From Pseudomonadota bacterium (GTDB lineage Bacteria; Desulfobacterota; Desulfobacteria; Desulfobacterales; JAHIVH01): a stretch of DNA of 64,000 nt. Within the stretch, counting starts at the first letter, position 1. Each line of letters opens with the position of its first letter. Of this stretch, positions 12,924 through 57,503 are shown one piece after another. The notes beneath the pieces are model-generated. The model was not told the DNA's origin, searched no databases, and saw only the letters and a list, made by a program, of their open reading frames with translations. The position numbers and the translations under genes were made by a program. The stretch covers positions 18,066 through 82,065 of the forward strand of contig JAHIVH010000085.1 in the NCBI GenBank assembly GCA_018816735.1, written 5' to 3'.

Positions 12924-13038
12924 TTTTTTAAGGTTATATACGGTTTAGGTTAGTTTAAGTTGATATATATTTAATGTTATTTTGGCTTTTGAATCGGGAA
13001 ATTGGAAGCTGAAAAAAAATCGTAAAAGGAGAATGTAA

Positions 13039-13326
13039 ATGGAAGCAACAGCACTGAATTTTTTTATCGCGTGCGTCACCGCAGCTGGTTTTGGTATTTC
13101 AGTTGCAGCATTTGGTTGTGGTCTTGCTCAGGGCATGGGCCTCAAAGCTGCCGTTGAAGGTATTGCACGAAATCCGGAATCTTCCGGTAAAGTTACCGTT
13201 ACCATGCTGATCGGTCTTGCCATGATCGAGTCTCTGTGTATTTATGCTCTGGTTATTGCGCTGATTCTTATTTATGCGCATCCTCAGGCTGCAACAATCG
13301 CAGGTCTTCTTGGCGGTGGTCACTGA
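13039..13326 (+). CDS. atpE: F0F1 ATP synthase subunit c
   Basis: 95-aa hairpin proteolipid. GLAQGMG...ARNPE loop and the ion-binding Glu in AMIESLCIYALVIAL. Confidence 0.95.
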   Translation: MEATALNFFIACVTAAGFGISVAAFGCGLAQGMGLKAAVEGIARNPESSGKVTVTMLIGLAMIESLCIYALVIALILIYAHPQAATIAGLLGGGH

Positions 13327-13354
13327 TATTTACGGTCACATTGAAGAAGCACAT

Positions 13355-13397
13355 AAAAAGGGCTGTGCCACGCTGGGCACAGCCCTTTTTGTTTTGT
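13355..13397 (+). terminator. Rho-independent terminator after atpE
   Basis: Perfect 10-bp GC-rich stem, gggctgtgcc (13360-13369) pairing with ggcacagccc (13376-13385). The loop is 6 nt and is followed by tttttgtttt. An A-run on the 5' side makes it potentially bidirectional. Confidence 0.85.
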
Positions 13398-13402
13398 AAA
13401 CC

Positions 13403-38063: not shown

Positions 38064-38948
38064 ATGAAACAGTTGAAGAACAAAGTGGCGGCTATAACGG
38101 GCGCTGCTTCAGGCATCGGCAGGATGTTGGCCATTCGGTTGGCTTATGAAGGCAGCCATCTGGCGATCTCGGATATCGATGAAACCGGCCTGATGGCAAC
38201 GAAAAAAATGATCGGAGATCATATCAATATATCCACCCATGTGGCGGATGTGGGAATTTACGAACAGGTATGCCGGTTTGCAGAAGAGGCCGTGGCATAC
38301 CACGGAAAGGTCGATCTCCTCATCAATAATGCCGGTGTCAGCCTGACAGATTTTCTGGAAACGGTTCCTTTGGAAGATTTCAAGTGGCTCATGGACATCA
38401 ATTTCTGGGGCGTGGTGCATGGCACGATGGCCTTTCTTCCCTTTTTGAAAAGACGTCCGGAAGGCCACATCGTCAATATATCAAGCATTTCGGCAATGCT
38501 CCCCAACCCGAATAACGGCCCGTATTGCGCGGCAAAATCCGCTGTCAAAGGATATACCGAGACCCTGTACCAGGAGCTTATGGAAACAAACATTCATGTG
38601 AGTTGTGTCCATCCGGGCGGGATAAAAACCAATCTCGGGCGAAATGCCCGTGTAAACCGGACATTATCTGACATATCCAAAGAGACAGCAGTTGAACTGT
38701 GTGACAAAGAGGTATTTATTACAACGGCGGAACAGGCGGCAAAAACTATTATTGCCGGGATCAAACGAAATAAAAGACGGATAATAACAGGGATTGATGC
38801 AAAAGTAATCGACATTCTGACGCGCCTGTTTCCGCAAACCATGATCAGCCTGTGTGCCATTTCATCTAAAAGACTGGCAAAGAAATATGCAGATCTGCAA
38901 GGAGCAGATCGGGCCATCCGACCGAGTTCCGTTCATCTCCCCTTTTAA
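38064..38948 (+). CDS. Short-chain dehydrogenase/reductase (SDR), paralogue 1
   Basis: TGAASGIGR cofactor motif, NNAG, and catalytic NISS...YCAAK. 294 aa. Confidence 0.9.
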   Translation: MKQLKNKVAAITGAASGIGRMLAIRLAYEGSHLAISDIDETGLMATKKMIGDHINISTHVADVGIYEQVCRFAEEAVAYHGKVDLLINNAGVSLTDFLETVPLEDFKWLMDINFWGVVHGTMAFLPFLKRRPEGHIVNISSISAMLPNPNNGPYCAAKSAVKGYTETLYQELMETNIHVSCVHPGGIKTNLGRNARVNRTLSDISKETAVELCDKEVFITTAEQAAKTIIAGIKRNKRRIITGIDAKVIDILTRLFPQTMISLCAISSKRLAKKYADLQGADRAIRPSSVHLPF

Positions 38949-38969
38949 AATCAAATACGGCCCGTATTC

Positions 38970-40007
38970 TTATAAGATATTCTCCCTGTAACTTTTGGGG
39001 GTGGTTCCGGTCCAGTTTTTGAATGCCCGGTAGAAGCTCGATACTTCACTGAATCCCAGGTGAAGCGCCACTTTTTCCATGGGCAAACCGGTAGTAAGGA
39101 GCAGTTCGATGGCTTTGGTTTTTCGCATATCCGTTAGAATATTCTTGTACGATGTGCTTTCGTCCATCAGTCGGCGCCTGATGGTTCGGGGCGACATATT
39201 GATGCGTCTGGCCAATTGATCCAGAGTGGGGAATTTATCCTGATGAAGAGACAGTTCCTGGCTGATCCTGGCCGTGATTGTCTCATGTTCCTTCAGCCGG
39301 GAAACCAGTTGGTCACATTCCTTTATAAGAGAATTTTTCACCAGAGGATTGGCGAGTTTGAGTGGTTTTGACAAATGGTCGACATCAAAAACGATCAGAT
39401 GAACAGGTGCGTCAAATTTAATGGGGCAACCGAAAGTATCTGCATATCGGTCGGCGTATGATGGTTTTTCATAGGCAAAGTGGAGTTCTTTAAATACGGA
39501 TGCATCTTCGTAGAACAGGTGGGCCATGCTATAGAGAGATGCCACCTCGGATTCACATATATATTGCCGGATATCCCCCAGATCGATGATCTCCTTGAAT
39601 TTTGCAACCCCGGTATTTCCTTTTATTTTTAAAAAATACTGATGGTAGGATGCGGTCAGATGAATATAGGTGAGGGCCAGTTTCAGGGCTTCCATCATGG
39701 TTTCACAGCACATCATCGCCATACCCAGTTTACCGTTGGCACTGAAATGATATTCCTTACCAAGCTCAAGGCCGATCCAGGGAACGGGTATGAGCCTGAT
39801 GGCATTTCTTGCAATGGCCATTTCCTGGGTGGTGGCAATCAGTTTCTGCGGATCATCCAGATCGGCCAGGGAAATACCGCTACCGGCAAGGAGGCGTTCG
39901 GAGCATATTCCATACCGGGTTGCAATTCGGGCAAACACAGCAACAGCGTTGATAAGCCTGAAAGGGGGCAACCGTGAGCTTGAGTGGATATAGGATAGAT
40001 CGGTCAT
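38970..40007 (-). CDS. AraC-family transcriptional regulator with an N-terminal ligand-binding-like domain
   Basis: C-terminal double HTH: SPRTIRRRLMDESTSYKNILTDMRKTKAIELL...LGFSEVSSFYRAFKNWTGTTPKSYR. Divergent from the activase operon. Confidence 0.9.
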   Translation of the reverse strand: MTDLSYIHSSSRLPPFRLINAVAVFARIATRYGICSERLLAGSGISLADLDDPQKLIATTQEMAIARNAIRLIPVPWIGLELGKEYHFSANGKLGMAMMCCETMMEALKLALTYIHLTASYHQYFLKIKGNTGVAKFKEIIDLGDIRQYICESEVASLYSMAHLFYEDASVFKELHFAYEKPSYADRYADTFGCPIKFDAPVHLIVFDVDHLSKPLKLANPLVKNSLIKECDQLVSRLKEHETITARISQELSLHQDKFPTLDQLARRINMSPRTIRRRLMDESTSYKNILTDMRKTKAIELLLTTGLPMEKVALHLGFSEVSSFYRAFKNWTGTTPKSYRENIL

Positions 40008-40045
40008 AAGGCGTTTCCATTTTTTTGGCCGTTTCAGTCAATATT

Positions 40046-40095
40046 AATGACCGTTTGGGTCATTGTCAACACGGTTCTTGTCACGTATCTATAAT
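40046..40095 (+). promoter_or_regulatory. Divergent control region: inverted repeat plus a consensus -10
   Basis: aatgacc-N5-ggtcatt (40046-40064), a TTGTCA direct repeat (40064-40069 and about 40077-40082) and TATAAT (40090-40095), about 30 nt before the activase ATG. There is no good -35 box, as expected for an activator-dependent promoter. Confidence 0.35.
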
Positions 40096-40126
40096 GAAAC
40101 AATCAGACAGACAAACAGAGGAACAT

Positions 40127-40891
40127 ATGATTACGGTCGGTATCGATATTGGTTCAATTACCACAAAAATTGCCCTGATGGAGGGAAAAAAGCTTTTATA
40201 CACAGATGTATCATTAAGCGGTTACGACATGGAAAAGGCGTGGCAGGCTATTTATAAAAAAATGCTTGAAAGGACCGGAAAGAAGGAATCGGACATCTCT
40301 TTTCTGGTTTCAACCGGATATGGCCGGAACAACGTCAGTATCTCCCAGAAGAAAATCACTGAAATTTCCTGTCATGCAGCAGGCGCAAAATATTTTTTTC
40401 CAAAGGTGAAGGCAGTCATCGACATCGGGGGCCAGGACAGCAAGTTTATCAGAATCGATGATACCGGGAGTATTCTCGATTTTGTAATGAATGACAAATG
40501 TGCGGCCGGTACCGGGCGTTTTCTGGAGGTGATGGCCCGGGCCCTCCACGTGGAGATAGACGATTTTTCAACCCTGTCCGGGAAATCAAAAAAGCCGGTG
40601 ACTATCAGCAGCATGTGCACGGTATTCGCGGAATCCGAAGTCATTTCCCTGATCGCCAAAGGAGAAAACCGGGAAAATATCATTGCCGGCATTCATGATT
40701 CAATTGCATCAAGGATGATATCGATGATGAAGCGTACCGGTGTGGCCAGCCCGGTTGTCATGACCGGTGGTGTGTCGAAGAATATCGGCATGCGAAAAGC
40801 CATAGAGAAGAAAATCGGCATGACGTTAAATGTACCGGAACAGGCGCAAGTGTGTGGTGCCATCGGTGCCGCTATTCTGGGCTCAGGTTGA
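40127..40891 (+). CDS. HgdC-like (BcrAD_BadFG) activase ATPase of a radical 2-hydroxyacyl-CoA dehydratase
   Basis: MITVGIDIGSITTK (phosphate-1), DIGGQDSK, and the cluster-bridging Cys contexts NDKCAAGTGRFLE and SSMCTVFAESEVIS. The track ORF from 40025 is an upstream extension. Confidence 0.9.
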   Translation: MITVGIDIGSITTKIALMEGKKLLYTDVSLSGYDMEKAWQAIYKKMLERTGKKESDISFLVSTGYGRNNVSISQKKITEISCHAAGAKYFFPKVKAVIDIGGQDSKFIRIDDTGSILDFVMNDKCAAGTGRFLEVMARALHVEIDDFSTLSGKSKKPVTISSMCTVFAESEVISLIAKGENRENIIAGIHDSIASRMISMMKRTGVASPVVMTGGVSKNIGMRKAIEKKIGMTLNVPEQAQVCGAIGAAILGSG

Positions 40892-40917
40892 AGAGAAAAC
40901 GGATAAGGAAAAAATAA

Positions 40918-41949
40918 ATGAGGTTATTTGCCTACTATGATACGGGCCATGAGTTTTCAGAAGAAATCGTCATGGCCGCCGGATTCACGCCGTATAAGAT
41001 ACTGGGGGATGTCAATGTGCCGAATGATCCGGCTGACCGGTATGTGCATAATTACATCTGCCCGTTTTCACGATCCTGCCTGACGGAAGGCATGGCTCGT
41101 TCGGACGAGTGGGCGGGTATCGCCTTCTGCCATGGATGCGATACCACGAACAATCAGTATGATATCTGGAAGCACCATGTCAAAACCGATTTTTTATACT
41201 GGATCAATACACCGGCAAAAAACGATGCTACCGCAAGGGCATATCATGAGCACGAACTGCGCCGGTTTATTTCCCATATGGAAAAGCATTATCGGGTAGA
41301 CATCACAGATGACAAACTTTCGGAAGCGATCAGGACGTCAAACAGCGTAAAACGCCTGATGCAGGAACTCGCGAAACTCCGTCCGGTAAAGGACATCCCC
41401 AATGACGCCTACCACGCAATCACCAGGAAGTGTGTGCAGATGCACAAGGACGATCTGATCGCAGCGCTTGAGAAAACACTTGAGGAATGGAAGAACCGCC
41501 CGGCGTTTCCGTCTGACTGTCTACCGGTGCTTCTGACAGGTTCGGACATGACCTACCCTGAAGGAATGGATATTCTGGAAGCAGCAAAACTCCGGGCGGT
41601 GCGAGATGATCTGTCTCTGGGAGAACGGTATTTTGCAGAGACGATTTCAGAAGAAGGCGATCCGGTAAAAGCGCTGGTAGACTACCACGCCCGTATCCCC
41701 ATGCCGCCTACAAAAATTCCATTTGAGGCACGGCTTGTTTATTTGCGGAAATGCCTGAAAGAGACTAACGTCAAAGGAATCGTCTATCAGATTCTGAAAT
41801 TCTGCGAACCCCATGGCCTGGATCTGCCCTATATGGCAGGTGAACTTAAGAAAGACGGTCACAGACTGATTGTCATCGAAAGGGAGTATACGCCTACGAT
41901 CGATCAACAGCTCGTGAGCCGACTTGAAAGTTTCAGGGAAATCATTTAA
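40918..41949 (+). CDS. 2-hydroxyacyl-CoA dehydratase / benzoyl-CoA reductase family subunit (smaller, HgdB-like)
   Basis: 343 aa. EEIVMAAGFTPYKILG near the N-terminus and FCEPHGLDLPYM near the C-terminus fit the HgdAB/BcrBC fold family (PF06050-type). Confidence 0.8.
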   Translation: MRLFAYYDTGHEFSEEIVMAAGFTPYKILGDVNVPNDPADRYVHNYICPFSRSCLTEGMARSDEWAGIAFCHGCDTTNNQYDIWKHHVKTDFLYWINTPAKNDATARAYHEHELRRFISHMEKHYRVDITDDKLSEAIRTSNSVKRLMQELAKLRPVKDIPNDAYHAITRKCVQMHKDDLIAALEKTLEEWKNRPAFPSDCLPVLLTGSDMTYPEGMDILEAAKLRAVRDDLSLGERYFAETISEEGDPVKALVDYHARIPMPPTKIPFEARLVYLRKCLKETNVKGIVYQILKFCEPHGLDLPYMAGELKKDGHRLIVIEREYTPTIDQQLVSRLESFREII

Positions 41950-41973
41950 ATAAGGCGGAAAACAAGGACGGTT

Positions 41974-43284
41974 ATGATCAAATTAACCCGTTTTATCATT
42001 CAAAACCCGAAATTATTTGCACAGGGTATAAAGGGGTATATGAACCAGCACCTTTCCCCGCGTTTATACCAGATTATTCTGCAATATCTCACTCAGACCA
42101 AAATGACCACGGTGCAACCCTGGAAAAAATTCGGCGTTTTCAGTGCCGGATTCCCCACAGAGATTCCCCTGGCCATGGGGTATTTCCCCGGATACCCGGA
42201 AGCCTATGCCGCCTTTACAGGCGCAGCCGGCTGCACGGTTCCCCCCATCGAGCATGCCGAAAGCCTTGGATATGGCCGTGATTTGTGCAGTTATATGAAG
42301 ACCAGTATCGGCGCCTCCCGCATGAACTGGCCCGAGGATTTTGGCGGTAACAGACCGGCAGACGCCTATTTTTCAGCAAACCTGGTATGCGATACCCATT
42401 TGAAATGGTTTGAAAGCGAAGCCAGAATTCATGGAAAACCGCATTTTGCATTAGATGTGCCGAGTCTGGTGGCTGGGGAGAGCGAGGAAAGGCTTGAAGA
42501 GTATGTGGATTACGTGGTACAGCAGTTGTATGATTTGATCGGTTTTCTGGAACAGCATACCGGAAGAAAGTTCAATGAAAGGAAATTCTTTGAGCTCGTA
42601 AACAACTCCTTCGAGATTTCCAGTTTGTTCAAGGAATTGAATGCGTACCGGAAACGGTTCCCCGCAAACCGGTATTTTGAATGGGTAAGAAGTTTTATGC
42701 TGCCCATGGTCAGCCAATGGAATCAGAAGGATGCCATCCGCTATTACAAAAAACATCTGGAGATGGCCCGGAAACGGTATGGTGACAATCAAACCATCGC
42801 GTCCGGCAGGGAAAAATACCGGGTGTTGTGGGAGGGGATAACGCTTTGGTACAATGTGGATTTGTATCAGAAGGTTTTGGCGGACAAGGGCGCCTATATT
42901 GTGGCAGATCCCTATACTTATTCATTTGCCGCGCGAAGCAAACCCAAATCCACATTGGCGGAAACCCTGCGCCAGATCGCCCGGGACCACATCATCATTC
43001 CCTTTACCCTGAATCTGGATAGACGCATCGCCTATTTCAACACGCTGATCAAGGAATTCGATCTGGATGGCATTATCATGCATGCGAACCAGAGTTGCAG
43101 ACCAAACAGTACAGGCTTGCTTGATCTTAAGGAAGTACTTCACAAGAAGTGGGGCATCCCGGTTTTGATGATGAATACCGATCATTGCGATCCTCGGGCC
43201 TATGCAGATGGCCCCATGAACACCCGTATCGACGGGTTTGTCGAGATGATGGAAATATATAAGGAAAAGAGAATAAAAATATGA
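41974..43284 (+). CDS. 2-hydroxyacyl-CoA dehydratase / benzoyl-CoA reductase family subunit (larger, HgdA-like)
   Basis: 436 aa. SAGFPTEIPLAMG, CSYMK, VCDTHLKWFE and NQSCRPNS blocks are typical of the family. The stop overlaps the next gene (ATGA). Confidence 0.8.
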   Translation: MIKLTRFIIQNPKLFAQGIKGYMNQHLSPRLYQIILQYLTQTKMTTVQPWKKFGVFSAGFPTEIPLAMGYFPGYPEAYAAFTGAAGCTVPPIEHAESLGYGRDLCSYMKTSIGASRMNWPEDFGGNRPADAYFSANLVCDTHLKWFESEARIHGKPHFALDVPSLVAGESEERLEEYVDYVVQQLYDLIGFLEQHTGRKFNERKFFELVNNSFEISSLFKELNAYRKRFPANRYFEWVRSFMLPMVSQWNQKDAIRYYKKHLEMARKRYGDNQTIASGREKYRVLWEGITLWYNVDLYQKVLADKGAYIVADPYTYSFAARSKPKSTLAETLRQIARDHIIIPFTLNLDRRIAYFNTLIKEFDLDGIIMHANQSCRPNSTGLLDLKEVLHKKWGIPVLMMNTDHCDPRAYADGPMNTRIDGFVEMMEIYKEKRIKI

Positions 43285-44321
43285 AGGCATACACGTATTT
43301 AAAAACAAGAAGAGAAAATCAAACCCTGTGGGCGGAAATTCATAATCCCCCGGTTAATTTTTTGATCATGGATGTTCTGGAAGAATTGCATGAGCTGGTC
43401 AATGCGGTCAAGAATGACGATTCCATCCGGGTATTCATTTTAACAGGCGGCAGGGAAGACTCCTATATCATGCATTTTTCAATCCATGAACTGCTGATGC
43501 TCACCACGCACCTGAAAAAACTTTATCTCCATATTGCCGTCAAATCGAGAATTTCCAGTGCGGTTTTGAAATACATGACCACATTCACGAACTGGCTCAT
43601 GGATCTCTCCCCCTGGTATGAACGGTTCATATTGAAGCAGGCAAAGAAAATGCGACCGTATTCTATGGGGATGTTCTTGTGGATGCAGATGCAGCGGCTT
43701 TATCTGGCGATTGAGCGGATGAACAAGATTACCATTGCGGCCATAAACGGCCCCTGTAATGGCGGGGGAACGGAGATTTCCGCCTGTTTCGATTTCAGGT
43801 TCATGGTGGGTGATCAGGGATTTACCATGGGGCAGCCGGAGTGCTTGCTGAATATCGTTCCCGGCGGAGGCGGCACGCAGAGACTTCCCCGGTTGATCGG
43901 GCGTTCCAAAGCGCTGGAACTGATGCTCAAGGGGAATCAAATAACACCTGCGGAGGCAAAGAATTATGGCCTGTTGACCGATATTTTTGATAAAAAAGAC
44001 TTCCATAAAAAGCTCCAGGACTTTGCCGACCTCATGAGCAAACGACCGCCTGTGGCCGTGGATGCAATCAAACGGTCTGTGCTTGAGGGGATGAATACAA
44101 CACTTCGTCATGGCTTGAGTATCGAACTGGAACAGAGTGTTCGGTGCTTTGACACAAAAGATACCCAAAGAGCAATGGAGAAATATATCGAATATATAGA
44201 ATCCAATATTTTAACATTCGATTACGAAAACGCCACAACCAAAGAGATTGTGGCACTTTTAAACAGAACATCTCATATGATGGAACATGTGAAATTTTTT
44301 GACGGATTCAAGGGGGAGTAA
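43281..44321 (+). CDS. Enoyl-CoA hydratase/isomerase (crotonase) superfamily protein with a large insertion
   Basis: Oxyanion-hole motif INGPCNGGGTE, GQPECLLNIVPGGGGTQRLPRLIG and ALELMLKG place both catalytic Glu contexts correctly. It is 346 aa against about 260 for typical members. Confidence 0.8.
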   Translation: MKAYTYLKTRRENQTLWAEIHNPPVNFLIMDVLEELHELVNAVKNDDSIRVFILTGGREDSYIMHFSIHELLMLTTHLKKLYLHIAVKSRISSAVLKYMTTFTNWLMDLSPWYERFILKQAKKMRPYSMGMFLWMQMQRLYLAIERMNKITIAAINGPCNGGGTEISACFDFRFMVGDQGFTMGQPECLLNIVPGGGGTQRLPRLIGRSKALELMLKGNQITPAEAKNYGLLTDIFDKKDFHKKLQDFADLMSKRPPVAVDAIKRSVLEGMNTTLRHGLSIELEQSVRCFDTKDTQRAMEKYIEYIESNILTFDYENATTKEIVALLNRTSHMMEHVKFFDGFKGE

Positions 44322-45160
44322 TGAAACAGCTTAAAAACAAGGTGGCGGCAATTACAGGAGCAGCCTCAGGCATCGGCAGAATGCTGGCTGTCGGGCTTTC
44401 TAAAGAAGGCTGCCATCTGGCTATTTCAGACATTGATGAAAAGGGCCTTGCTGAAACAAGGAATATGATCGGTGACAGGGTAAATATATCCACCCATAAG
44501 GTAGATGTAGCCAGGCAGGAAGACGTATTCCGGTTTGCGGAAGAGACCATTGCCCATCACGGTGGGGTAGACATGATCTTCAACAACGCCGGTGTCAGCC
44601 TGGGCGATTTTCTGGAGACCGTGCCTCTTGCGGATTTCAAATGGCTCATGGGAATTGATTTCTGGGGTGTGGTGCACGGAACCATGGCCTTTCTACCCTT
44701 GCTGAAAAAAAGGCCTGAAGGGCATATCATCAATATTTCGAGCATAAACGGCATCCTGTCGAACCCGAACAACGGCCCCTATTGCGCTGCAAAATTCGCG
44801 GTCAAGGGATATACGGAAACCCTCTATCAGGAGCTGATGGATACAAACATCCACGTGAGCTGTGTACATCCGGGCGGTATCAAGACAAATATCGGCAGAA
44901 ATGCCCGCGTCAACCGGGCACTTTACAATATAACCAAAGACAGCGCCGTGGAACTATATGACAAGGAACTGTTCAAGACCACGGCAGAACAGGCGGCAGG
45001 CATCATCATTTCAGGCGTCAAGCGGAATGAAAGACGCATCATGGTCGGAAACGACGCCAAAGTCGCGGACATGCTGACCCGGTTGTTCCCCAAAACCATG
45101 GTCTGGCTTTGCGCTGTTGTTACCAGGCGATTGGCAAAGAAATACGCGGCAAACTCGTAG
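44321..45160 (+). CDS. Short-chain dehydrogenase/reductase (SDR), paralogue 2
   Basis: The first 23 residues are identical to the SDR at 38064 (MKQLKNKVAAITGAASGIGRMLA). It has the same NNAG and YCAAK motifs and long identical blocks throughout. Confidence 0.9.
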   Translation: MKQLKNKVAAITGAASGIGRMLAVGLSKEGCHLAISDIDEKGLAETRNMIGDRVNISTHKVDVARQEDVFRFAEETIAHHGGVDMIFNNAGVSLGDFLETVPLADFKWLMGIDFWGVVHGTMAFLPLLKKRPEGHIINISSINGILSNPNNGPYCAAKFAVKGYTETLYQELMDTNIHVSCVHPGGIKTNIGRNARVNRALYNITKDSAVELYDKELFKTTAEQAAGIIISGVKRNERRIMVGNDAKVADMLTRLFPKTMVWLCAVVTRRLAKKYAANS

Positions 45161-45233
45161 GGGTACTCCTTGTGGGTACCCGAAATGCCGGAGAACAGTC
45201 AATGCCCGGGAAACCACAAGGGATTGCCCCTAC
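45157..45233. repeat. REP-like structured intergenic element between convergent genes
   Basis: Nested inverted repeats: gtagggg (45157-63) with cccctac (45227-33), and ccttgtgg (45168-75) with ccacaagg (45214-21). The arms overlap both flanking stop codons. The right half recurs at 48701-48748. Confidence 0.5.
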
Positions 45234-46795
45234 GGATGGGTGCATGATATAATGAAACAGCCGCCACCACCACCTCCGGAATTATCTTCTGCTGCCTTAT
45301 GGGACAGCGTTAAATCATGACCGCCGGTGCAGGTCATTGCGCCCGATACCCAGGTCCAGCTGACCGTGCCTTGGGCGGTTGTCCGGTCATCTGAAAAAAT
45401 GAGATTGATAATATCTGATACAGTCCCGTTGTTATGGGTATAGGTGCCACTGCATGTCACCGTGTCTTCATCCAGTGTGCAGTCATATACATGGTCATTG
45501 TCTACAGTAGTCTGATATCCGGTTTCGGTTTTTTCGAGGTATATGCCGCCGGTTTCTGCAGAAGACGGTGTGGAACAGGAATCGGTTTTGTTTGATTCCG
45601 TGTAGGTCCAGTCGCCTTCAACGGAAAGGGGATCGATGACAGGGTCAGGATTGGGCGCGGGCGTTTCTTCCGGCACACGACCGGTATGCCTGGGGTTCTG
45701 GCGGTACATGGGCCAGGACGTCCCTGCCAGTCCGCCTGAAGAACCTTCGATGGCATACAATTTATTGTCATCGGAACCGATATAAATGGTCCCGTCAGAA
45801 CCGATGGCCGGGCTGGAAAAGACATACCCGCCTGTTTGATAGCGCCATTTCAGTGTGCCGTCGGAATTTATGGCATATATGCTGAAGTCATTGGAGCCGA
45901 TGTATATGGTCCCGTCCGCGCCGATGGCGGGTGACGCTCGCAAACTGCCTGATGTGGCATAGGTCCATTTCAATGTGCCGTCCGGATGGATGGCATAAAG
46001 ATTCATGTCGTCTGAACCGGCATAAATCGTTCCGTCCGGTCCGATGGCGGGTGAAGAATTGATCCTGGCGCCGGTGGCAAAATTCCATTTTGGGGTGCCA
46101 TCCGAGTTGAACGCGTATAATTTCCCATCGCCTGACCCCACATAAATTGTCCCGTCTGCAGCAATCGCGGGTGAGGATTGGATCGCGCCTCCGGTAATCG
46201 TTCTCCAGTGAAAATCACACCCCGGGCCGACGGCGTGCAGGTATCCGGCATCATCTCCAAAGTAAACTCTTCCGTCCGCACCGATTGCCGGTGATGATCC
46301 CACATCTCCTTCTGCATTGTGGACACAGGTTTTAGACGCTGTATCTGGAGAGAGCCAGTATAGATCACCCACGTTGTTGGAAACGTAAATAGTGCCGTCA
46401 GCGCCAATACCAGGAGAGTTTCCGGGAAAAACCATGGTCTTCCATTTATAAGATGTGCCATCCGGTTTGATGGCAAACAGGTACATGCCAGATGTGCCGG
46501 GGATATAAATGGTGCCATCGTCAGCAATGGCAGGTGAACGTTCGACAGCCGTATTATCCATATTATAGGACCATTTCAAAGAGCCATCAGAATGAATAGC
46601 ATAAAGATGCATGTCTTTGCCCATGGACCCCACATAAATGGTTCCGTCCTCGCCGATTGCCGGGGAAGATCGGACCCAACTTTTGGTCTCAAAAGCCCAT
46701 TTCAGATCGCCGTCTGCGGCATAGGCGGTGAAAGATACTGAAAGAATAAAAATGATAATGCATATATATTTTCTGAATGATCTCAAATGATTCAC
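45230..46795 (-). CDS. Secreted 8-bladed PQQ-like/BamB-like beta-propeller protein with a C-terminal beta-rich domain and Gly6-CFI tail
   Basis: Signal peptide (IIIFILSVSFTAYA). Eight repeats of SSPAIGxDGTIYxGS...LYA...DGTxKW, then WPMYRQNPRHTGR. The tail ends ...SGGGGGGCFIISCTHP. Confidence 0.85.
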   Translation of the reverse strand: MNHLRSFRKYICIIIFILSVSFTAYAADGDLKWAFETKSWVRSSPAIGEDGTIYVGSMGKDMHLYAIHSDGSLKWSYNMDNTAVERSPAIADDGTIYIPGTSGMYLFAIKPDGTSYKWKTMVFPGNSPGIGADGTIYVSNNVGDLYWLSPDTASKTCVHNAEGDVGSSPAIGADGRVYFGDDAGYLHAVGPGCDFHWRTITGGAIQSSPAIAADGTIYVGSGDGKLYAFNSDGTPKWNFATGARINSSPAIGPDGTIYAGSDDMNLYAIHPDGTLKWTYATSGSLRASPAIGADGTIYIGSNDFSIYAINSDGTLKWRYQTGGYVFSSPAIGSDGTIYIGSDDNKLYAIEGSSGGLAGTSWPMYRQNPRHTGRVPEETPAPNPDPVIDPLSVEGDWTYTESNKTDSCSTPSSAETGGIYLEKTETGYQTTVDNDHVYDCTLDEDTVTCSGTYTHNNGTVSDIINLIFSDDRTTAQGTVSWTWVSGAMTCTGGHDLTLSHKAAEDNSGGGGGGCFIISCTHP

Positions 46796-48755: not shown

Positions 48756-50597
48756 TTATAATTTGTATTTACCGGCGATGATGGCATCGTAAACGGGTTT
48801 TGCAAGGGGCGTGTATTCATCCTCCCCGGGTAACAGCACATAAAGCGGATCAGGTATTTTTTCAGGATCAAATCCGTCTGTTTTGAGATTGGTTTTTTTG
48901 ATCTTGAATGTGGCGGTTGTTTCAAATTGGGTTTTGACGCGGATAAAAATCGGGACGGCGTATGAGGGCAGGTCTTTTTTTAATCTTTGGGCGAGTTCTT
49001 TTTTATTGATGTCGTCTTCCAGGGTATCGGTGATGATGGAGACCATTCCTGCCCGGCCGTCTGTTCCGGGAATGGCCACGCCATAAGCGGTTGCGGAAGA
49101 TATCCCATCTATCTGGTTTACCATTTCTTCCACTTCTGTGGTGGAGACATTTTCTCCTTTCCATCTGAAAGTGTCTCCCAGCCTGTCGACGAACTGGAGA
49201 TGTTTCAACCCGATCTCCCGCATCAGGTCGCCGGTATTGAACCACATGTCTCCTTTTTTAAATACATCCCTGAAGACTTTTTTGTCCGACTCTTCCTTGT
49301 TCGTGTATCCGATATAGGGAGAAAGATTTGTAATTTCCGTTAACATCAGCCCGGGTCGGCCGGGTTTCACTTTTTTCAGGAAGCCGTTCTGATCCCGAAT
49401 GACGTCCCCATCGTCAATATCATACTCTGCGATGGCATAGGGGGTGGGGCACAGGCCAACACTGCAGTCTATATTGAAAAAATTGGTGAATATGGATGGG
49501 CCTTCTGCTGCGCCGTAAAATTCATACACATGGGGTATGTCAAACCGTTTTTTAAACTGTTTCCAGATATCCGGGCGAAGACCGTTGCCGACAATTTTTT
49601 TCACCGGATTATCCCGGTCATCTGATTTTGGCGGCTGATTCATCAGGTAGCGCAATATCTCGCCAATATACATAAATGTCGTGGTATTGAATTTCCGGGT
49701 ATCGTTCCAGAAATTGCTGGCACTGAATTTTCGCCTGATGGCAATGGCGGCGCCGGATATTGCCGCCGTGGCCCATGCCACATGAAGGCCGTTTGTATGG
49801 TAGAAGGGAAGCGGAATATACATGGTGTCATCAGATGTCAAATCCATATTAAAGCGGCCAAACCATCGGCCCGCACCCACCCATTTGAAATTGAGCTGGA
49901 TAGACGCTTTGGGAAGACCTGTGGTTCCTGAGGTAAATACATAGGCAAAAGGATCTTTTAATCGTATTTCTTTTGTGGTGGATGGATTGGTCAAAGGAAA
50001 CCCCCCGGAGATCCGGGTTAAATCCAGGTAGCCTTCAGGCGGTTTCATATCCGATCCATCTGCCAGAAAATATATTTTGGCTGGCGCCGAAAGGTTCAGG
50101 TCCGGCCGGATTTCTTCAAATGCATCTCTCATCTCTTCGCCCACAATGAACAGATTTTTGCAGGTGATATTGACACTGTGGAGAAGTATCTTGCCGGTCT
50201 GGTTGGGGTTTATCAGGCTTGCGATAGCACCGACCTTGGCAAGCGCGCTGATAATCATGACCAGTTCAGGCCTGTTCTCCATGAAAACACCCACCACATC
50301 TCCTTTTTGAATATGTTCGGAAATAAAGTAGTTTGCATAACGGTTCACAGCCTCGTTGAGTTCCTTATGCGTGAAAACCTGATCTTCATACAAGAGGGCT
50401 CGTTTTTCCGGATGCATGGCTGCATTTCGTTCAATGACCATTCCTACCGAATTGATATCGTTCATGGATACGGTTTTCATTTCAAATACCGTTTTAAGCA
50501 AAGACGGTATTCTGGGAACTCTTGAAATGATTCCGGGTAGAAGATCGCGAAATGTTACAACCAGTTCTGTGTGTTGATTTGTGATAGGTGGTGTCAT
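48756..50597 (-). CDS. Long-chain / FATP-type acyl-CoA synthetase (AMP-forming)
   Basis: AMP-binding motif YVFTSGTTGLPKA, YGAAEG, TGDLM and FRWKGENVST (the FATP/VLACS-type signature). I prefer the ATG at 50597. Confidence 0.9.
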   Translation of the reverse strand: MTPPITNQHTELVVTFRDLLPGIISRVPRIPSLLKTVFEMKTVSMNDINSVGMVIERNAAMHPEKRALLYEDQVFTHKELNEAVNRYANYFISEHIQKGDVVGVFMENRPELVMIISALAKVGAIASLINPNQTGKILLHSVNITCKNLFIVGEEMRDAFEEIRPDLNLSAPAKIYFLADGSDMKPPEGYLDLTRISGGFPLTNPSTTKEIRLKDPFAYVFTSGTTGLPKASIQLNFKWVGAGRWFGRFNMDLTSDDTMYIPLPFYHTNGLHVAWATAAISGAAIAIRRKFSASNFWNDTRKFNTTTFMYIGEILRYLMNQPPKSDDRDNPVKKIVGNGLRPDIWKQFKKRFDIPHVYEFYGAAEGPSIFTNFFNIDCSVGLCPTPYAIAEYDIDDGDVIRDQNGFLKKVKPGRPGLMLTEITNLSPYIGYTNKEESDKKVFRDVFKKGDMWFNTGDLMREIGLKHLQFVDRLGDTFRWKGENVSTTEVEEMVNQIDGISSATAYGVAIPGTDGRAGMVSIITDTLEDDINKKELAQRLKKDLPSYAVPIFIRVKTQFETTATFKIKKTNLKTDGFDPEKIPDPLYVLLPGEDEYTPLAKPVYDAIIAGKYKL

Positions 50598-50638
50598 GTA
50601 TTTTCTCTTATTCTGATTTGTTATCGTTATAAAAGGGA

Positions 50639-51481
50639 TTATAATTTTGTGCCGCAATACTTACAGAAGACGGCATCATGATCATGTCCTTCTGCTGCAC
50701 ATTCCGGGCATGACTGGGTTGAGACTTTTTTAGGCCGCACCCGGGACATCTCCACCGTCACGATTCCTGTGGGAACGGCGATGATGCCATAACCCAGTAT
50801 CATTACCAGGGCAGCCAGGGCCTGACCGGCATTTGTTTTGGGAGAAATATCACCATATCCGACCGTAGTCAGGGTGACGATTGCCCAGTAAATGCTTCTC
50901 GGGATGCTGGTAAAACCGTTTCTCTGCCCTTCGATAATATACATCAGTGATCCCACAATAATGACCAGAATCATGACTGTAAAGAGAAAAATCGTAATTT
51001 TTCTCCGGCTTTCCTTCAGCGCCTGAAGAAGCATGGCAGATTCACCCAGATACTGGGCAATTTTCAATACCCTGAATATTCTTAAAACCCTTAATATCCG
51101 GATCACTATCATGTAATGACTGCCTGGAATGAAAAGCCCGATATACGTGGGGAGAATCGACAGCAAATCAACGATGCCGAAAAAGCTTTTCATGTATTTC
51201 ACCGGCCTCCCCACGCAGAGTATTCTTAAACCATATTCAATGGTAAAGATCAGGGTGAAGAACCATTCCGCAGTATAGAGAATGGGCCCATAGGCTGTTT
51301 TGATACTGTCCACACTGTCAAGCATCACAGTGATGACGCTTAAGAGAATGCTTATGATCAGCAGAATATCAAATAATTTTCCGGCAGACGTATCTGCTTC
51401 AAAGATGATTTCATGCAATACCGCCCGCCAGTGATGTTGCCGTATTTCAGTTGATGGAGCATTCACAATTATTACCTGCAA
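50639..51481 (-). CDS. Voltage-gated-type K+ channel (6TM) with a C-terminal zinc-ribbon tail
   Basis: S4-like IRILRVLRIFRVLKIAQ, selectivity filter TTVGYGD and C-terminal CPEC...CKYC. Alternative (TTG) start; the exact start is uncertain. Confidence 0.85.
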   Translation of the reverse strand: MQVIIVNAPSTEIRQHHWRAVLHEIIFEADTSAGKLFDILLIISILLSVITVMLDSVDSIKTAYGPILYTAEWFFTLIFTIEYGLRILCVGRPVKYMKSFFGIVDLLSILPTYIGLFIPGSHYMIVIRILRVLRIFRVLKIAQYLGESAMLLQALKESRRKITIFLFTVMILVIIVGSLMYIIEGQRNGFTSIPRSIYWAIVTLTTVGYGDISPKTNAGQALAALVMILGYGIIAVPTGIVTVEMSRVRPKKVSTQSCPECAAEGHDHDAVFCKYCGTKL

Positions 51482-51489
51482 TATCGAGA

Positions 51490-52560
51490 CTATAATAACA
51501 CTTGATCCGTATACGCCACATTGGCGTCTTCCGATTTATAGAGGGACACCGGTTTGTCATCCCGGAGGTCTTGGACCCAGTTGGGGTTTAAGAGCATGGA
51601 TTTTGCGCTTAAAATAATGTCCGCATCTTTTAAGGCATCATCGGCACTTTTACGGTCATAGATTTTCCCGCAGATCATGATGGGAAGTGTGGTCATTTCC
51701 CGGGTGAGTTGTGCCATATTTTTGTCTGTGCCAAAGGCTTTTTCCTTGTAATCGTAAGTGGAAACAGAAATGGCATCTATGGGCTCATCTGAAAACAAAC
51801 GAATGACTTCCTGGTAGTCTTCCTTTTTCTCAAAAAGAAAGACGTCCATATCGGCAATGCCCCAATTTGAGATTCTGGCGATGAGAAGCCTGTCTTCAGG
51901 AATGACCTGCCGAACAGCCTGGATCACTTCATGGGCAAATCGGTATCTGTTTTTAACCGAGCCGCCATAACCATCTGTCCGATTATTGGAGTAAGAAGAG
52001 AGAAATTGGCTGATCAGATATCCGTGTGCACAATGAATTTCCACACCGTCAAATCCTGCGGCAATAACGCCTTTGGATGTTTCAACAAACCCATTTATCA
52101 CATGGTCAATGTCAAATTGGCTCATCACATCCGGCACAGGATAAGGGGAACCGGTCAATGGATTCATTTGTTTCGGTGTGATCGCACTGGGCGCAATTGA
52201 CCTGTTTGCAGGGTTTACTTCCGGCCATGCCATTCGGCCACAATGAAAGAGCTGGCAAATGATCTTTGCCCCTTGTTTTTGAATCGATTTGACGATAGGC
52301 TGCCAGGCTTCGATTTGCCGTTTTGTAGTCAGGCGGGATTGATTGGGATATCCCTGAGCGCTTTCATAATCTGTTACAATGGCTTCCGTATAAATCAAGG
52401 CAGCACCGTTTTGCGCCCGCCTGACCAGAAAATCAAGCACATCCTTTCGAGGTATGCTGTCATGCTGGGATGACATGCGTGTCATGGGAGCCACGCCAAT
52501 CCGATTTTTCAGTTCAACATGTTTTAGCTTGAATGGAGAAAAAAGTGTCGTGTCTTTCAT
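51490..52560 (-). CDS. Old Yellow Enzyme-family NADH:flavin oxidoreductase
   Basis: 356 aa. N-terminal FSPFKLKHVELKNRIGVAPMT, plus HCAHGYLISQFLS and RTDGYGGS motifs. Confidence 0.9.
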   Translation of the reverse strand: MKDTTLFSPFKLKHVELKNRIGVAPMTRMSSQHDSIPRKDVLDFLVRRAQNGAALIYTEAIVTDYESAQGYPNQSRLTTKRQIEAWQPIVKSIQKQGAKIICQLFHCGRMAWPEVNPANRSIAPSAITPKQMNPLTGSPYPVPDVMSQFDIDHVINGFVETSKGVIAAGFDGVEIHCAHGYLISQFLSSYSNNRTDGYGGSVKNRYRFAHEVIQAVRQVIPEDRLLIARISNWGIADMDVFLFEKKEDYQEVIRLFSDEPIDAISVSTYDYKEKAFGTDKNMAQLTREMTTLPIMICGKIYDRKSADDALKDADIILSAKSMLLNPNWVQDLRDDKPVSLYKSEDANVAYTDQVLL

Positions 52561-52581
52561 TTTTAGGCCTCCTTTTTTTGC

Positions 52582-54327
52582 TCAACCTGTTATATGGCGC
52601 ACCATCGCCCTTCCGATAAATCTGGCCTTTGTCCCCAGGTTGAATCGGTTTAAATTTGTTTTTAAAATCCCTTTGGTAAATCGGGTGTGTTTTTTATAAT
52701 CGATATTCACTTCCACAATGACCGGTGTATGACCTGCAGCCAATTGAAGTGCCTTGGTGATGACCGTTTCGGCATCTTCATTTCTTTTCATCATCAGGAA
52801 TTGAGCGCCGGTTGCCATCGCTACCCCTTTGATGGACAGGTTTCCCAATACGGTACAGACTTTTCTGTTATAGGGAAGTTCCTGGGCCTGTGCGATTTGG
52901 GACAGTTCTCCATCTTTAAAGACAAAAAAAACAGCGCCGGTTTTAAGGGAAGTTGCGGTTAGAATTTCCATGCAGGTCATGGTAAATGCGCCATCGCCTA
53001 TAATTCCCACGACCTGGTTTTCGGGATGTGCCAGTTTTGTTCCGATCACTGCCGGTACAGCATACCCCATACAATTGAAATCGGTTGGTGATATGAATCT
53101 CCTGGAAGCATGAATCGGCATCAATTCTGCAGCAAGAAAGGTATGATTGCCATCGTCTGCCACAACAAAGTCATCGTCCTTCAGGCTGTTTCTCAGTTTT
53201 TCAAAAAAAACAGCCGGATTGACACGAGTCCCGCTGTTGTGCGCCAGCCATTCCTTTTTGTAGCTTTGTTTGTCTTTTTTTATCTGATCCCGGATATGGG
53301 TCCGATGATTTTGGGGGTTTTGTTTCTGCTGCAGTTTTTGCAGGACTGCATGAAGCATATTCAATGCATCTCCTTTGATTATCACCCTGGCCGGGTAATT
53401 GACGTTGAATACAGAAGGATTGATGTCAATATGGATCAGATTTTCAGGTACTGCCACACCGAAACTTCCTGTTGCGATTTCTCCAAATCGCGTGCCTATG
53501 GCCAGCATGCAGTCGCAGTTTTTAAACGCATTAGATGCCGCAGGCACGGCATATCCGCCAAAGCCCATCCCTGTGTGCAGCGGATGGTTTCCCGGGAATA
53601 CGCTTAATCCCTGCAGCGTGGTGCATACCGGCGCATTCAGATATTCGGCAATCCTGACGAGGTTATCCGTGGCGTCACGGGCACCCCAGCCCGCAAAAAT
53701 ACCCGGATTTTTTGCAGACATGATAAGCTCTACAGCCTGGTCGATTAGGGCGTCATCCGGATCAAATCCGGATTTTTTATCTTTTGAATCGTAGGGAGAC
53801 AAGTTTTCGATTTCGCCTGCATACAACTGGAGGTTGACGGGCACCTCCACGAAAACAGGCCCTGGTTCGCCGTCATGGGCGATTCGGTATGCTTCAAAAA
53901 TAGCAGGGACGATGTCCTTGTGCTCATTTATTTTGAATGTTTTCTTTGTTATTTCAGCCAAAAAATTCTGTTGATTCATTTCATGGAGCTGAAACGCGTA
54001 CTTACCGTCCGTCCTTACGCCTCCGGATATGACAATCATTGGGATTCCATCCAGGAATGCCTCACCTATGCCTGCCGATGCATACGCCGCCCCTGCAGCC
54101 GGAACAATAACCAATGTACCGGTCTTGTCAGATGTCCGGCTGATGGCATCTGCCATGAATGATGCGCATGCTTCATGGGTGACGAGAATAGGCGTAATGG
54201 TTTTCGAAAGATTTAATTCATCGTAAATTTCTGTGTTATGAACACCGGGAATGCCAAAAGTGTAAGTGATGCCCAACTCTTCCAGTGCATATCTGACCAA
54301 CCAGGCACCTGTTTTTTTCATATTCAT
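52582..54327 (-). CDS. Thiamine-diphosphate-dependent enzyme (acetolactate synthase-like superfamily)
   Basis: 581 aa. N-terminal Pyr domain (FGIPGVHNTEIYD...THEACASFMADA) and the ThDP motif GIIGDGAFTMT...E. Substrate unknown. Confidence 0.9.
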   Translation of the reverse strand: MNMKKTGAWLVRYALEELGITYTFGIPGVHNTEIYDELNLSKTITPILVTHEACASFMADAISRTSDKTGTLVIVPAAGAAYASAGIGEAFLDGIPMIVISGGVRTDGKYAFQLHEMNQQNFLAEITKKTFKINEHKDIVPAIFEAYRIAHDGEPGPVFVEVPVNLQLYAGEIENLSPYDSKDKKSGFDPDDALIDQAVELIMSAKNPGIFAGWGARDATDNLVRIAEYLNAPVCTTLQGLSVFPGNHPLHTGMGFGGYAVPAASNAFKNCDCMLAIGTRFGEIATGSFGVAVPENLIHIDINPSVFNVNYPARVIIKGDALNMLHAVLQKLQQKQNPQNHRTHIRDQIKKDKQSYKKEWLAHNSGTRVNPAVFFEKLRNSLKDDDFVVADDGNHTFLAAELMPIHASRRFISPTDFNCMGYAVPAVIGTKLAHPENQVVGIIGDGAFTMTCMEILTATSLKTGAVFFVFKDGELSQIAQAQELPYNRKVCTVLGNLSIKGVAMATGAQFLMMKRNEDAETVITKALQLAAGHTPVIVEVNIDYKKHTRFTKGILKTNLNRFNLGTKARFIGRAMVRHITG

Positions 54328-54789: not shown

Positions 54790-54904
54790 AAATTTATCCG
54801 GGCAAACATACTAACGAATCCAATGGATCACAGAGATGTTTGTTCAATTTTAGACTAAAGTCGACTATCGATTTTTAGCAAGCTTGAAAACAGGATCATA
54901 TAGT

Positions 54905-57465: not shown

Positions 57466-57503
57466 AAAGAGCCTGGATAAATTTTAAAGATTGAGAAAAG
57501 AAA

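Follow-up and report, generated by a model that had tools for sequence, protein, structure and literature searches.

We describe a predicted radical-enzyme module at positions 38064-45160 of a 64,000-nucleotide stretch of DNA (the window) from a bacterium deposited as Pseudomonadota and placed by GTDB in the Desulfobacterales of the Desulfobacterota (lineage JAHIVH01; GenBank assembly GCA_018816735.1, contig JAHIVH010000085.1, positions 18,066 to 82,065 of the forward strand). The module comprises genes for two short-chain dehydrogenases/reductases (SDR1 and SDR2), an AraC-type regulator, an ATP-dependent activase, a small and a large subunit of Pfam family PF06050, and a crotonase-fold protein. 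Judged by its sequence, the radical enzyme is a member of the benzoyl-CoA reductase/2-hydroxyacyl-CoA dehydratase (BCR/HAD) family, consisting of a PF06050 pair and a BcrAD_BadFG ATPase, that is without a characterised orthologue. Uncharacterised BCR/HAD homologues are expected in organisms of this kind; what is new is a separate clade of the family with HAD-type clusters, set in an oxidative hydratase-dehydrogenase operon of sulfate reducers and syntrophs, and a literature search found no description of this gene combination. We read the module as a catabolic operon that would turn a 2-hydroxyacyl-CoA into a 3-oxoacyl-CoA, and put the probability of this reading at about 45%.

The two PF06050 genes are adjacent, both of their HGD-D matches span the whole profile (E-values in Table 1), and the activase scores 293 bits against TIGR00241 (cutoff 125). 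At the profile level the best solved match of the large subunit is HadB, with 219 bits versus 173 for BzdO, 171 for MbdO and 48 for DCCP, and its AlphaFold model (pLDDT, the predicted local distance difference test, of 83) fits the three-domain α/β fold of the catalytic subunit. Two comparisons failed as discriminators within the family and were set aside: the fold of the large subunit, with template-modelling (TM) scores of 0.80 to HadB, 0.79-0.81 to BzdO, 0.78 to MbdO and 0.70-0.72 to DCCP, where 0.80 for HadB stands against 0.81 for BzdO; and the similarity of the activase, whose scores against structures in the Protein Data Bank (PDB) are too close (MbdQ 245, HgdC 232 and HadI 227 bits). 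The large subunit is 25% identical to HadB/FldB-like proteins. In a library of clusters at 50% identity its family is discrete, as two full-length representatives score 414 and 345 bits and the next full-length one 230 bits (34% identity).

The cluster ligands are more telling. BzdN and DCCP hold an [8Fe-9S] double cubane through six Cys, which in BzdN are Cys36, Cys73, Cys100, Cys263, Cys293 and Cys327, and the HADs are the branch of the family that lost both double cubanes (PMC11971306, the 2025 BzdNO structure paper). In the small subunit, the equivalents of BzdN Cys73, Cys100 and Cys327 are invariant (81-82 of 82 homologues); Ser replaces Cys263 in 78 and Pro replaces Cys293 in 72 of the 82, and position 10, which a reading of the alignment equates with Cys36, is Gly. 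As only the three Cys of the proximal cluster are kept, the small subunit should be unable to build the double cubane. Cys105, Cys139 and Cys375 of the large subunit, kept in all 18 homologues compared, correspond to BzdO Cys95, Cys128 and Cys380 and to the ligands of HadB; such a three-Cys [4Fe-4S] site with an open fourth iron is common to HadB and BzdO, and so includes BCRs. Cys125 and Cys164 of the activase sit in the motifs that bind the bridging inter-subunit [4Fe-4S] cluster, and the module, like the operon of every relative, has one ATPase gene, as does DCCP. The cluster-ligand pattern and the single ATPase gene together give the predicted enzyme a HAD-type architecture; the same architecture, ascribed to the activase and two PF06050 subunits by the initial annotation, is thus borne out by the three-Cys sites, the single ATPase and both activase Cys. 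The single ATPase, in a module without a ferredoxin or flavodoxin gene, would also fit a catalytic rather than a stoichiometric electron demand.

In these respects the enzyme resembles HadBC/HadI of Clostridioides difficile (PDB 3O3M/3O3N and 4EHT), HgdAB/HgdC, FldBC/FldI and LcdAB: one bridging-cluster ATPase serves a PF06050 heterodimer, the catalytic subunit has a three-Cys [4Fe-4S] site and its partner a single three-Cys site, and a Glu and two Tyr lie near the thioester site. In the large subunit these would be Glu76, invariant and equivalent to BzdO Glu65, and the conserved Tyr107 and Tyr314. The enzyme is unlike HadBC in its low identity and separate clade, in a His beside the cluster and in a small residue in place of a Trp. 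The His, His142, is the equivalent of BzdO His131, the proposed proton donor; it is His in 16 of 18 family members and Gln in the other 2, and is not universal in BCRs, the position being Phe in MbdO. In HadB and BzdO alike, a Trp (Trp46) takes up the room left by the lost sub-cluster; its equivalent in the large subunit is Val, with small residues across the close clade. As predicted from these residues, the active site is a mosaic of HAD-type clusters, a BzdO-type His and an enlarged pocket.

The crotonase was initially annotated as a hydratase, and it retains both catalytic glutamates of true hydratases: Glu165 (in GGGTE) and Glu187 (in QPE), corresponding to Glu144 and Glu164 of rat hydratase, are invariant in 39 homologues, and the top Foldseek matches are hydratases. 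Its length of 346 aa is due to a conserved insertion of about 70 aa (residues 68-140), which is predicted to be helical with a pLDDT of 78-90 and is amphipathic and abundant in aromatic and basic residues; no solved crotonase spanning the full query length was found, the best query-normalised TM-score being 0.61. In Desulfosudis oleivorans Hxd3 (CP000859; locus L097, 9205-12829; loci of relatives are given by L numbers), a 345-aa insertion crotonase, 71% identical to that of the window, occurs without PF06050 genes and is flanked by a putative cyclase gene and an overlapping saccharopine-dehydrogenase-like gene; an NAD-binding gene similar to the latter comes after the SDR gene in L012.

Both SDRs have TGAASGIG at residue 12, NNAG at 88 and YCAAK at 154, and an Asp37 after strand β2. 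An Asp at this place usually denotes NAD in the standard classification of SDRs, and Asp37 suggests that both enzymes are of the NAD type and work in the oxidative direction. All of their NCBIfam equivalog scores fall below cutoff. SDR2 scores 169 bits against PRK05855, a model of an EphD-like hydrolase-SDR fusion, in whose C-terminal SDR half the match lies, and yeast (3R)-hydroxyacyl-CoA dehydrogenase ranks third among its PDB matches; its orthologues come after the crotonase in L001, L012, L016, L023 and L092. A two-Glu crotonase followed by an SDR recalls the pairs of β-oxidation-type pathways (crotonase and hydroxyacyl-CoA dehydrogenase; BbsH/BbsCD; BadK/BadH), from which the present pair differs in the crotonase insertion of about 70 aa, in the EphD-like SDR subgroup and in the source of the enoyl-CoA, which would be a radical dehydratase instead of an acyl-CoA dehydrogenase. 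The two SDR genes are paralogous, as first noted, with 76% identity over 276 aa; their DNA is about 72% identical over the first 300 nt, and the match begins 8 nt upstream of each ATG. Given this protein identity, the DNA match and the single copy in close relatives, the pair probably stems from a lineage-specific duplication. The position of SDR1 is without an equivalent in relatives, and the suggestion that SDR1 interconverts 2-oxo and 2-hydroxy acids found no support, as it is a recent duplicate of SDR2, has no AraC-region motif upstream and is absent from relatives.

A scan of open reading frames (ORFs) combined with domain searches upheld the seven-gene order SDR1, AraC, activase, small subunit, large subunit, crotonase and SDR2, as well as the domains and coordinates given to all seven ORFs (Table 1), and neither a CoA-transferase nor a CoA-ligase gene lies inside the module, as had been stated. 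Three overlapping junctions had been claimed, of which two are present, ATGA between the large subunit and the crotonase and TAATG between the crotonase and SDR2; these overlaps couple the translation of the crotonase and SDR2 to that of the large subunit. The spacers between activase and small subunit (26 nt) and between small and large subunit (24 nt) each contain an AAGGA-type ribosome-binding site. The mechanically called ORF of the activase begins at a TTG at 40025, and an in-frame ATG at 40127 behind AGAGGAA yields 254 aa; this ATG is most likely the start, since AGAGGAA precedes it and all orthologues measure 254-263 aa. The GC content at the module did not clearly indicate a genomic island, its borders showed neither inverted repeats nor mobile-element genes, and Rfam gave zero matches across the window. 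The flanking genes for a methyl-accepting chemotaxis protein (MCP), a β-propeller protein and an outer-membrane barrel were excluded as parts of the module because they are not kept beside it in relatives.

Table 1 Genes and control region of the module, with positions in the window
Feature	Position	Strand	Length and domain matches
SDR1	38064-38948	+	294 aa; adh_short E 1e-48
AraC/XylS-family regulator	38970-40007	-	345 aa; Arabinose_bd E 4e-38, HTH_18 E 3e-20
Divergent control region	40008-40126	.	119 nt between AraC and activase genes
ATP-dependent electron-transfer activase	40127-40891	+	254 aa; BcrAD_BadFG E 1e-63
Small (β-type) PF06050 subunit	40918-41949	+	343 aa; HGD-D E 7e-65
Large (α-type, putative catalytic) PF06050 subunit	41974-43284	+	436 aa; HGD-D E 2e-64
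Enoyl-CoA hydratase (crotonase fold)	43281-44321	+	346 aa; ECH_1 E 3e-35
SDR2, classical SDR	44321-45160	+	279 aa; adh_short E 4e-47

The AraC gene is divergent from the operon and convergent with SDR1. Its product has QhpR, GliR and CypR as nearest NCBIfam models, each below cutoff, and orthologues at 50-58% identity adjoin the operon in L001, L012, L014, L016, L031 and L092. The spacer between the AraC and activase genes contains back-to-back sigma-70-like hexamers (40066-40095 on the plus strand and 40069-40041 on the minus strand, with 10/12 matches each) and a conserved block of about 65 nt at 40030-40100 with the inverted repeat AATGACC-N5-GGTCATT (approximately 40046-40064). This block is kept in the window, L001, L012 and L092 despite the AraC proteins being 54-58% identical. 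The motif has a single occurrence within the window; it was not found upstream of SDR1, where the region is separate and AT-rich, and co-regulation of SDR1 is without support.

Relatives of the large subunit were sought in one genome per species. Those with 46-83% identity occur in Desulfobacterales, Desulfosalsimonadaceae, Smithella/Syntrophaceae, Syntrophobacteraceae and Chloroflexota, and those with 35-42% identity in further metagenome-assembled genomes (MAGs) of Smithella and in Spirochaetota, Asgard archaea and Bathyarchaeota; the clade recurs in many MAGs. The nearest relatives are Desulfobacterales MAGs and the cultured Desulfatiferula olefinivorans, which has the same operon at 77% identity; this operon corresponds to 6173-11385 of L001. 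The order activase, small subunit, large subunit, zero or one extra gene, crotonase and SDR was seen in six independent loci at 59-83% protein identity, and owing to this recurrence the arrangement is not attributable to chance. Where the large subunit is at least 70% identical, the crotonase gene lies after it in 7 of 10 informative loci (the window, L001, L012, L014, L016, L023 and L092) and an SDR gene lies downstream in 9 of 10. The co-conservation of crotonase and SDR with the dehydratase genes therefore holds in the closest clade, and it does not extend to the crotonase below about 67% identity, where that gene is absent.

More distant relatives have other partners. At 60-67% identity a sigma-54 activator gene is followed by those for activase, small subunit, large subunit, an EphD-like α/β hydrolase, sometimes a VOC protein, an SDR, a 216-aa protein, a further SDR and a CMD protein, often with thiolase, nitroreductase(-ferredoxin) and acyl-CoA ligase genes downstream; at 46-54% identity the series is activase, small subunit, large subunit, SDR, PaaK-like ligase, thiolase, nitroreductase and ferredoxin. 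The CoA ligases and thiolases of SCP-x/BbsB type in these operons point to a CoA-ester, β-oxidation-like pathway, and thiolases of this type are also a likeness to benzylsuccinate-type pathways. Counted over 249 neighbouring ORFs of 25 loci, SDR genes are commonest; the approximate counts are 26 SDRs, 15 sigma-54 activators, 10 nitroreductases, 10 CoA ligases, 9 thiolases, 9 α/β hydrolases, 8 crotonases and 6 AraC regulators. As SDRs are the commonest partner, and a Zn-dependent alcohol dehydrogenase gene lies between the activase and small-subunit genes of a 40% relative (L096, 5084-9278; MAG CAZGWD010000003), the persistent partner seems to be a dehydrogenase. Downstream in L096 are a fatty-acid desaturase-family gene and a ferredoxin gene. 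The α/β hydrolase was considered as a replacement for the crotonase and rejected, because one Smithella locus has both.

Three further arrangements were observed among these loci. A Smithella MAG (L016, 2164-15146; CAYZRT010000027) has a twelve-gene co-directional array in the order AraC, TetR, MCRA/oleate hydratase, GNAT, α/β hydrolase, activase, small subunit, large subunit, old yellow enzyme (OYE), crotonase, SDR and VOC. The protein of about 216 aa, which is without a Pfam or NCBIfam match, is encoded between two SDR genes in L003 (11065-11715) and also in L018, L019, L020, L022 and L094, and its copies in the 60-67% clade share 52-91% mutual identity. L094, of Syntrophobacteraceae type, encodes a two-domain VOC-SDR fusion of 652 aa (12341-14299) and a fusion of a nitroreductase with a 2x[4Fe-4S] ferredoxin of 355 aa (17424-18491), which suggests that the members of each pair work together; the cluster adjoins integrase and recombinase genes.

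On the reading that we prefer, the divergent AraC-type regulator would switch the operon on in order that a 2-hydroxyacyl-CoA be degraded in three steps. Going by the architecture, the homodimeric activase would draw on ATP to pass a single low-potential electron to the PF06050 heterodimer; at the thioester, the large subunit's [4Fe-4S] cluster would form a ketyl radical, the 2-hydroxyl would be expelled and the 3-proton lost to give an (E)-2-enoyl-CoA, and the electron would be recycled, as in HgdAB, HadBC, FldBC and LcdAB. In the second step, which is well supported by sequence, the crotonase would hydrate the enoyl-CoA to a 3-hydroxyacyl-CoA. In the third, the NAD-type SDR2, perhaps together with SDR1, may oxidise this product to a 3-oxoacyl-CoA, which would be thiolysed by enzymes encoded elsewhere. 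The module is thus unlike the known HAD systems in having a hydratase and an SDR, with an oxidative direction, instead of a CoA-transferase, a D-2-hydroxyacid dehydrogenase and an acyl-CoA dehydrogenase with electron-transferring flavoprotein (ETF), and its hosts are Desulfobacterota and syntrophs, not amino-acid-fermenting Firmicutes and Fusobacteria. A shift from a 2-hydroxy to a 3-oxo group had been put forward in the initial annotation; the architecture, the crotonase glutamates, the translational coupling and the co-conservation make it the best reading, with the reaction, its direction and its substrate deduced from the genes.

As to the substrate, context favours hydrophobic, lipid-like 2-hydroxyacyl-CoAs, for example those of 2-hydroxy fatty acids, with aryl-lactyl-CoA as the main alternative. 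A long-chain acyl-CoA synthetase (PRK08279, 756 bits, cutoff 625) is encoded 3.6 kb downstream of the module on the opposite strand, MMPL, lipase and lipocalin genes occur near relatives, and the array of L016 includes an oleate hydratase gene (PF06100, E 4e-171); the small residue at the Trp46 equivalent in the close clade and the crotonase insertion rich in aromatic and basic residues are further hints. Among the host taxa, Desulfatiferula olefinivorans and Smithella are known to degrade long-chain fatty acids, alkanes and alkenes. The product of oleate hydratase is (R)-10-hydroxystearate, from which four cycles of β-oxidation would leave (R)-2-hydroxydecanoyl-CoA, a compound with the stereochemistry that HADs use. 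A candidate substrate would be the (R)-2-hydroxyacyl-CoA left in this way when β-oxidation meets an even-numbered mid-chain hydroxyl, such as that of 10-hydroxystearate. It is conceivable, though on balance doubtful, that the clade as a whole consists of radical 2-hydroxyacyl-CoA dehydratases for medium- and long-chain acyl-CoAs, which would provide an oxygen-independent route for alpha- and mid-chain-hydroxylated lipids.

The conversion of 2-hydroxyacyl-CoA to 3-oxoacyl-CoA must be proposed cautiously, however, as a number of findings weigh against it. NCBIfam gives no dehydratase orthology: the large subunit scores 155 bits with the HadB model (cutoff 750), 106 with BzdO and 101 with BcrB, and the small subunit 117 bits with its top model, double_cubane, 105 with BzdN and 101 with HadC (cutoff 700). 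The best PDB match of the small subunit is BzdN (E 7e-32, versus 3e-16 for HadC), the activase scores at least as well on the BCR component MbdQ as on HgdC, and the position of His142 is hydrophobic in HadB-like proteins. In the cluster library more than 100 uncharacterised clusters at 50% identity score above the HadB-like representative, which reaches 116 bits. A neighbour-joining tree drawn without HgdA and LcdA places the family in a clade of its own, apart from the HadB/FldB-like group and from BzdO/MbdO; its deep nodes are without support, and for this reason we claim no sister group. The HadB-query search for named dehydratases returned, among the matches listed, HadB-like proteins of at least 52% identity only. 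The initial annotation had likened the subunits to those of HgdCAB; in our phylogeny they do not group with HadBC/FldBC-like proteins and form a separate clade about equidistant from HADs and class I BCRs (HgdAB and LcdAB left out).

The partner genes raise doubts of the same kind. The 346-aa crotonase family is far larger than the dehydratase clade (2,102 versus 78 matches), and insertion-type crotonases are also found without a dehydratase, as in Desulfosudis oleivorans Hxd3; on both counts we regard the hydratase-dehydrogenase pair as a recruited sub-module. Relatives at 46-67% identity are without the crotonase and carry nitroreductase-ferredoxin genes, sometimes fused, that would suit a stoichiometric electron supply; with the crotonase absent and other partners present below about 67% identity, the pathway may comprise more than the three-step scheme. 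The partners of fermentative HADs (class III CoA-transferase, D-2-hydroxyacid dehydrogenase, acyl-CoA dehydrogenase/ETF) were found neither in the module nor among the frequent neighbours in the 25 loci. An oleate hydratase gene was not found in the other fetched loci, and the link to this enzyme is that of L016 alone.

One may postulate, first, a different ketyl-radical reaction, which we consider unlikely, though the most probable of the alternatives. In this scenario the SDR acts first and makes a ketone from a diol, an epoxide-derived hydroxyl or a mid-chain hydroxyl, after which a substituent next to it, such as the hydroxyl of an alpha-hydroxyketone, is eliminated or rearranged by the PF06050 enzyme, with the crotonase, hydrolase, thiolase and VOC protein processing the product. 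Such a reaction would be new for the BCR/HAD family and is without precedent in it, and the operon of the window's clade is the minimal set for a simple 2-hydroxyacyl-CoA route; nevertheless, it would account for the SDR being the most persistent partner clade-wide, with the Zn-dependent alcohol dehydrogenase replacing it in the 40% relative. One half of the EphD-like epoxide-hydrolase/SDR fusion model PRK05855 is matched by the α/β hydrolase and the other by the SDRs, VOC (glyoxalase-fold), CMD and OYE genes recur, and L094 has the VOC-SDR fusion; the scenario would explain why relatives have hydrolase, VOC, CMD and OYE partners. The window's module, by contrast, has no hydrolase, VOC or CMD gene. 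The mosaic active site with its BzdO-like His and enlarged pocket, in a discrete clade distant from every characterised member, would also be compatible with a reaction other than that of the known enzymes.

A somewhat less probable alternative is that the enzyme dehydrates an aryl-lactyl-CoA such as phenyllactyl-CoA, in which case cinnamoyl-CoA would be hydrated, oxidised and thiolysed to benzoyl-CoA and acetyl-CoA; if true, this would link aromatic 2-hydroxy and 2-oxo acids to the benzoyl-CoA pathway. For a sulfate reducer that degrades benzene, a 2026 study (PMC13416013) postulated the same reaction sequence, with "a yet unassigned dehydratase" acting as alpha-dehydratase. The 46-54% relatives and L021 (73% identity) have a gene for a PaaK-like aryl-acid CoA ligase, and the thiolase of those relatives has a below-cutoff match to the benzoylsuccinyl-CoA thiolase BbsB; the window's own clade, however, is without the PaaK-like ligase, the ligase near its module being the long-chain acyl-CoA synthetase, and several relatives have lipid-related neighbours. 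A second, four-subunit BCR-like operon 10 kb downstream in the window would fit this reading but is not kept beside the module in relatives, and an identity of just 25% to HadB/FldB-like proteins also speaks against this substrate.

Less probable again is an ATP-driven reductase of the BCR/DCCP type acting, with stoichiometric ATP, on an aromatic, dienoyl or other unreactive unsaturated CoA ester, the crotonase and SDR taking the parts that dienoyl-CoA hydratase and hydroxyacyl-CoA dehydrogenase play in the benzoyl-CoA pathway. The enzyme is like the class I BCRs BzdNOPQ (PDB 8S02) and MbdONPQ (PDB 9G87/9GAI) in several ways: the fold is the same, both BzdO Glu65 and BzdO His131 have counterparts here, among solved structures the small subunit comes closest to BzdN and the activase to MbdQ, and the order of hydratase and then dehydrogenase downstream resembles that in the benzoyl-CoA pathway. 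Two of the six [8Fe-9S] ligands are gone in about 90% of the 82 small-subunit homologues, however, and because of this the two-electron store of BzdN and DCCP could not form. In BZD-type reductases the ATPase module is bound only transiently, and electrons could come from the nitroreductase-ferredoxin proteins encoded in relatives; the operon nonetheless has one ATPase gene where class I BCRs have two different ones, and the window's module is without a ring-opening hydrolase (the ring-cleaving hydrolase of the BCR pathway) or an electron-donor gene. Scores with the BcrB/C and BzdN/O equivalogs are all far below cutoff (73-106 bits versus 421-487). With DCCP/DCCP-R (PDB 6ENO and 7YYL) the enzyme shares the single homodimeric ATPase partner, the PF06050 fold and the double_cubane model as top match of its small subunit (117 bits); DCCP, however, is a homodimer with an [8Fe-9S] cluster in each subunit, whereas here there are two different subunits, both without the distal-cluster Cys, and the similarity is low (48 bits, TM 0.70-0.72).

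Finally, HAD reactions can in principle be reversed, each of the three enzyme types could work in the opposite direction and some relatives have lipid-related neighbours, but a biosynthetic route from 3-oxoacyl-CoA through 3-hydroxyacyl-CoA and 2-enoyl-CoA to (R)-2-hydroxyacyl-CoA, supplying 2-hydroxy fatty acids for membrane lipids without oxygen-dependent hydroxylases, is very improbable in view of the inducible AraC or sigma-54 control, the patchy distribution, the associated CoA ligases and thiolases, the NAD-type Asp of the SDRs in place of an NADPH signature, and the finding of no conserved acyltransferase or lipid-synthesis gene nearby in the 25 loci.

Other features of the window lie outside the module. 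The second BCR/HAD-family operon, at 54884-60518 on the plus strand, consists of five overlapping genes, which encode a PF06050 protein (412 aa, nearest to a double-cubane model), a GMC/FAD oxidoreductase-like protein (448 aa), another PF06050 protein (467 aa) and two different BcrAD_BadFG ATPases (272 and 269 aa); its layout is that of the four-subunit class I benzoyl-CoA reductases, into which a flavoprotein gene has been inserted. It is followed on the minus strand by genes for an acyl-CoA dehydrogenase (60599-61762), nearest to acryloyl-CoA reductase and cyclohexanecarbonyl-CoA dehydrogenase models, and an Fe-dependent alcohol dehydrogenase (62122-63339). Between both radical-enzyme operons, at 48756-54327 on the minus strand, four co-directional genes encode the PRK08279 acyl-CoA synthetase, an ion-channel protein, an old-yellow-enzyme flavoprotein (356 aa) and a thiamine-diphosphate enzyme that is acetolactate-synthase-like and below every cutoff. 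A 62-nt direct repeat with 120-nt spacing and 76% identity (45750-45931, minus strand) lies inside a 521-aa β-propeller ORF (45230-46795) and probably reflects the repeated blades of this PQQ/BamB-like protein.

The 2-hydroxyacyl-CoA dehydratases characterised so far all belong, to our knowledge, to reductive branches of amino-acid fermentation in Firmicutes and Fusobacteria, and our literature search found no paper that assigns an enzyme to the removal of β-oxidation-blocking hydroxyls in strict anaerobes. If the module does convert 2-hydroxyacyl-CoA to 3-oxoacyl-CoA, ATP-primed ketyl-radical chemistry would sit in an oxidative, β-oxidation-type operon of sulfate reducers and syntrophs and would address the removal of such hydroxyls. 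The hypothesis is directly testable, since the cultured Desulfatiferula olefinivorans has the same operon, and the clade, as a natural intermediate of HAD and BCR active sites, is useful for understanding how the family diversified. Should the clade further prove to act on medium- and long-chain acyl-CoAs, sulfate reducers and syntrophic Smithella/Syntrophaceae could fully β-oxidise the 2-hydroxy fatty acids of sphingolipids, lipopolysaccharide, cutin and suberin, as well as (R)-2-hydroxyacyl-CoA derived from 10-hydroxystearate and, after hydrolase and SDR steps, epoxy and diol fatty acids. HAD chemistry would then move from amino-acid fermentation into the degradation of lipids and hydrocarbons in sediments, digesters and oil reservoirs.

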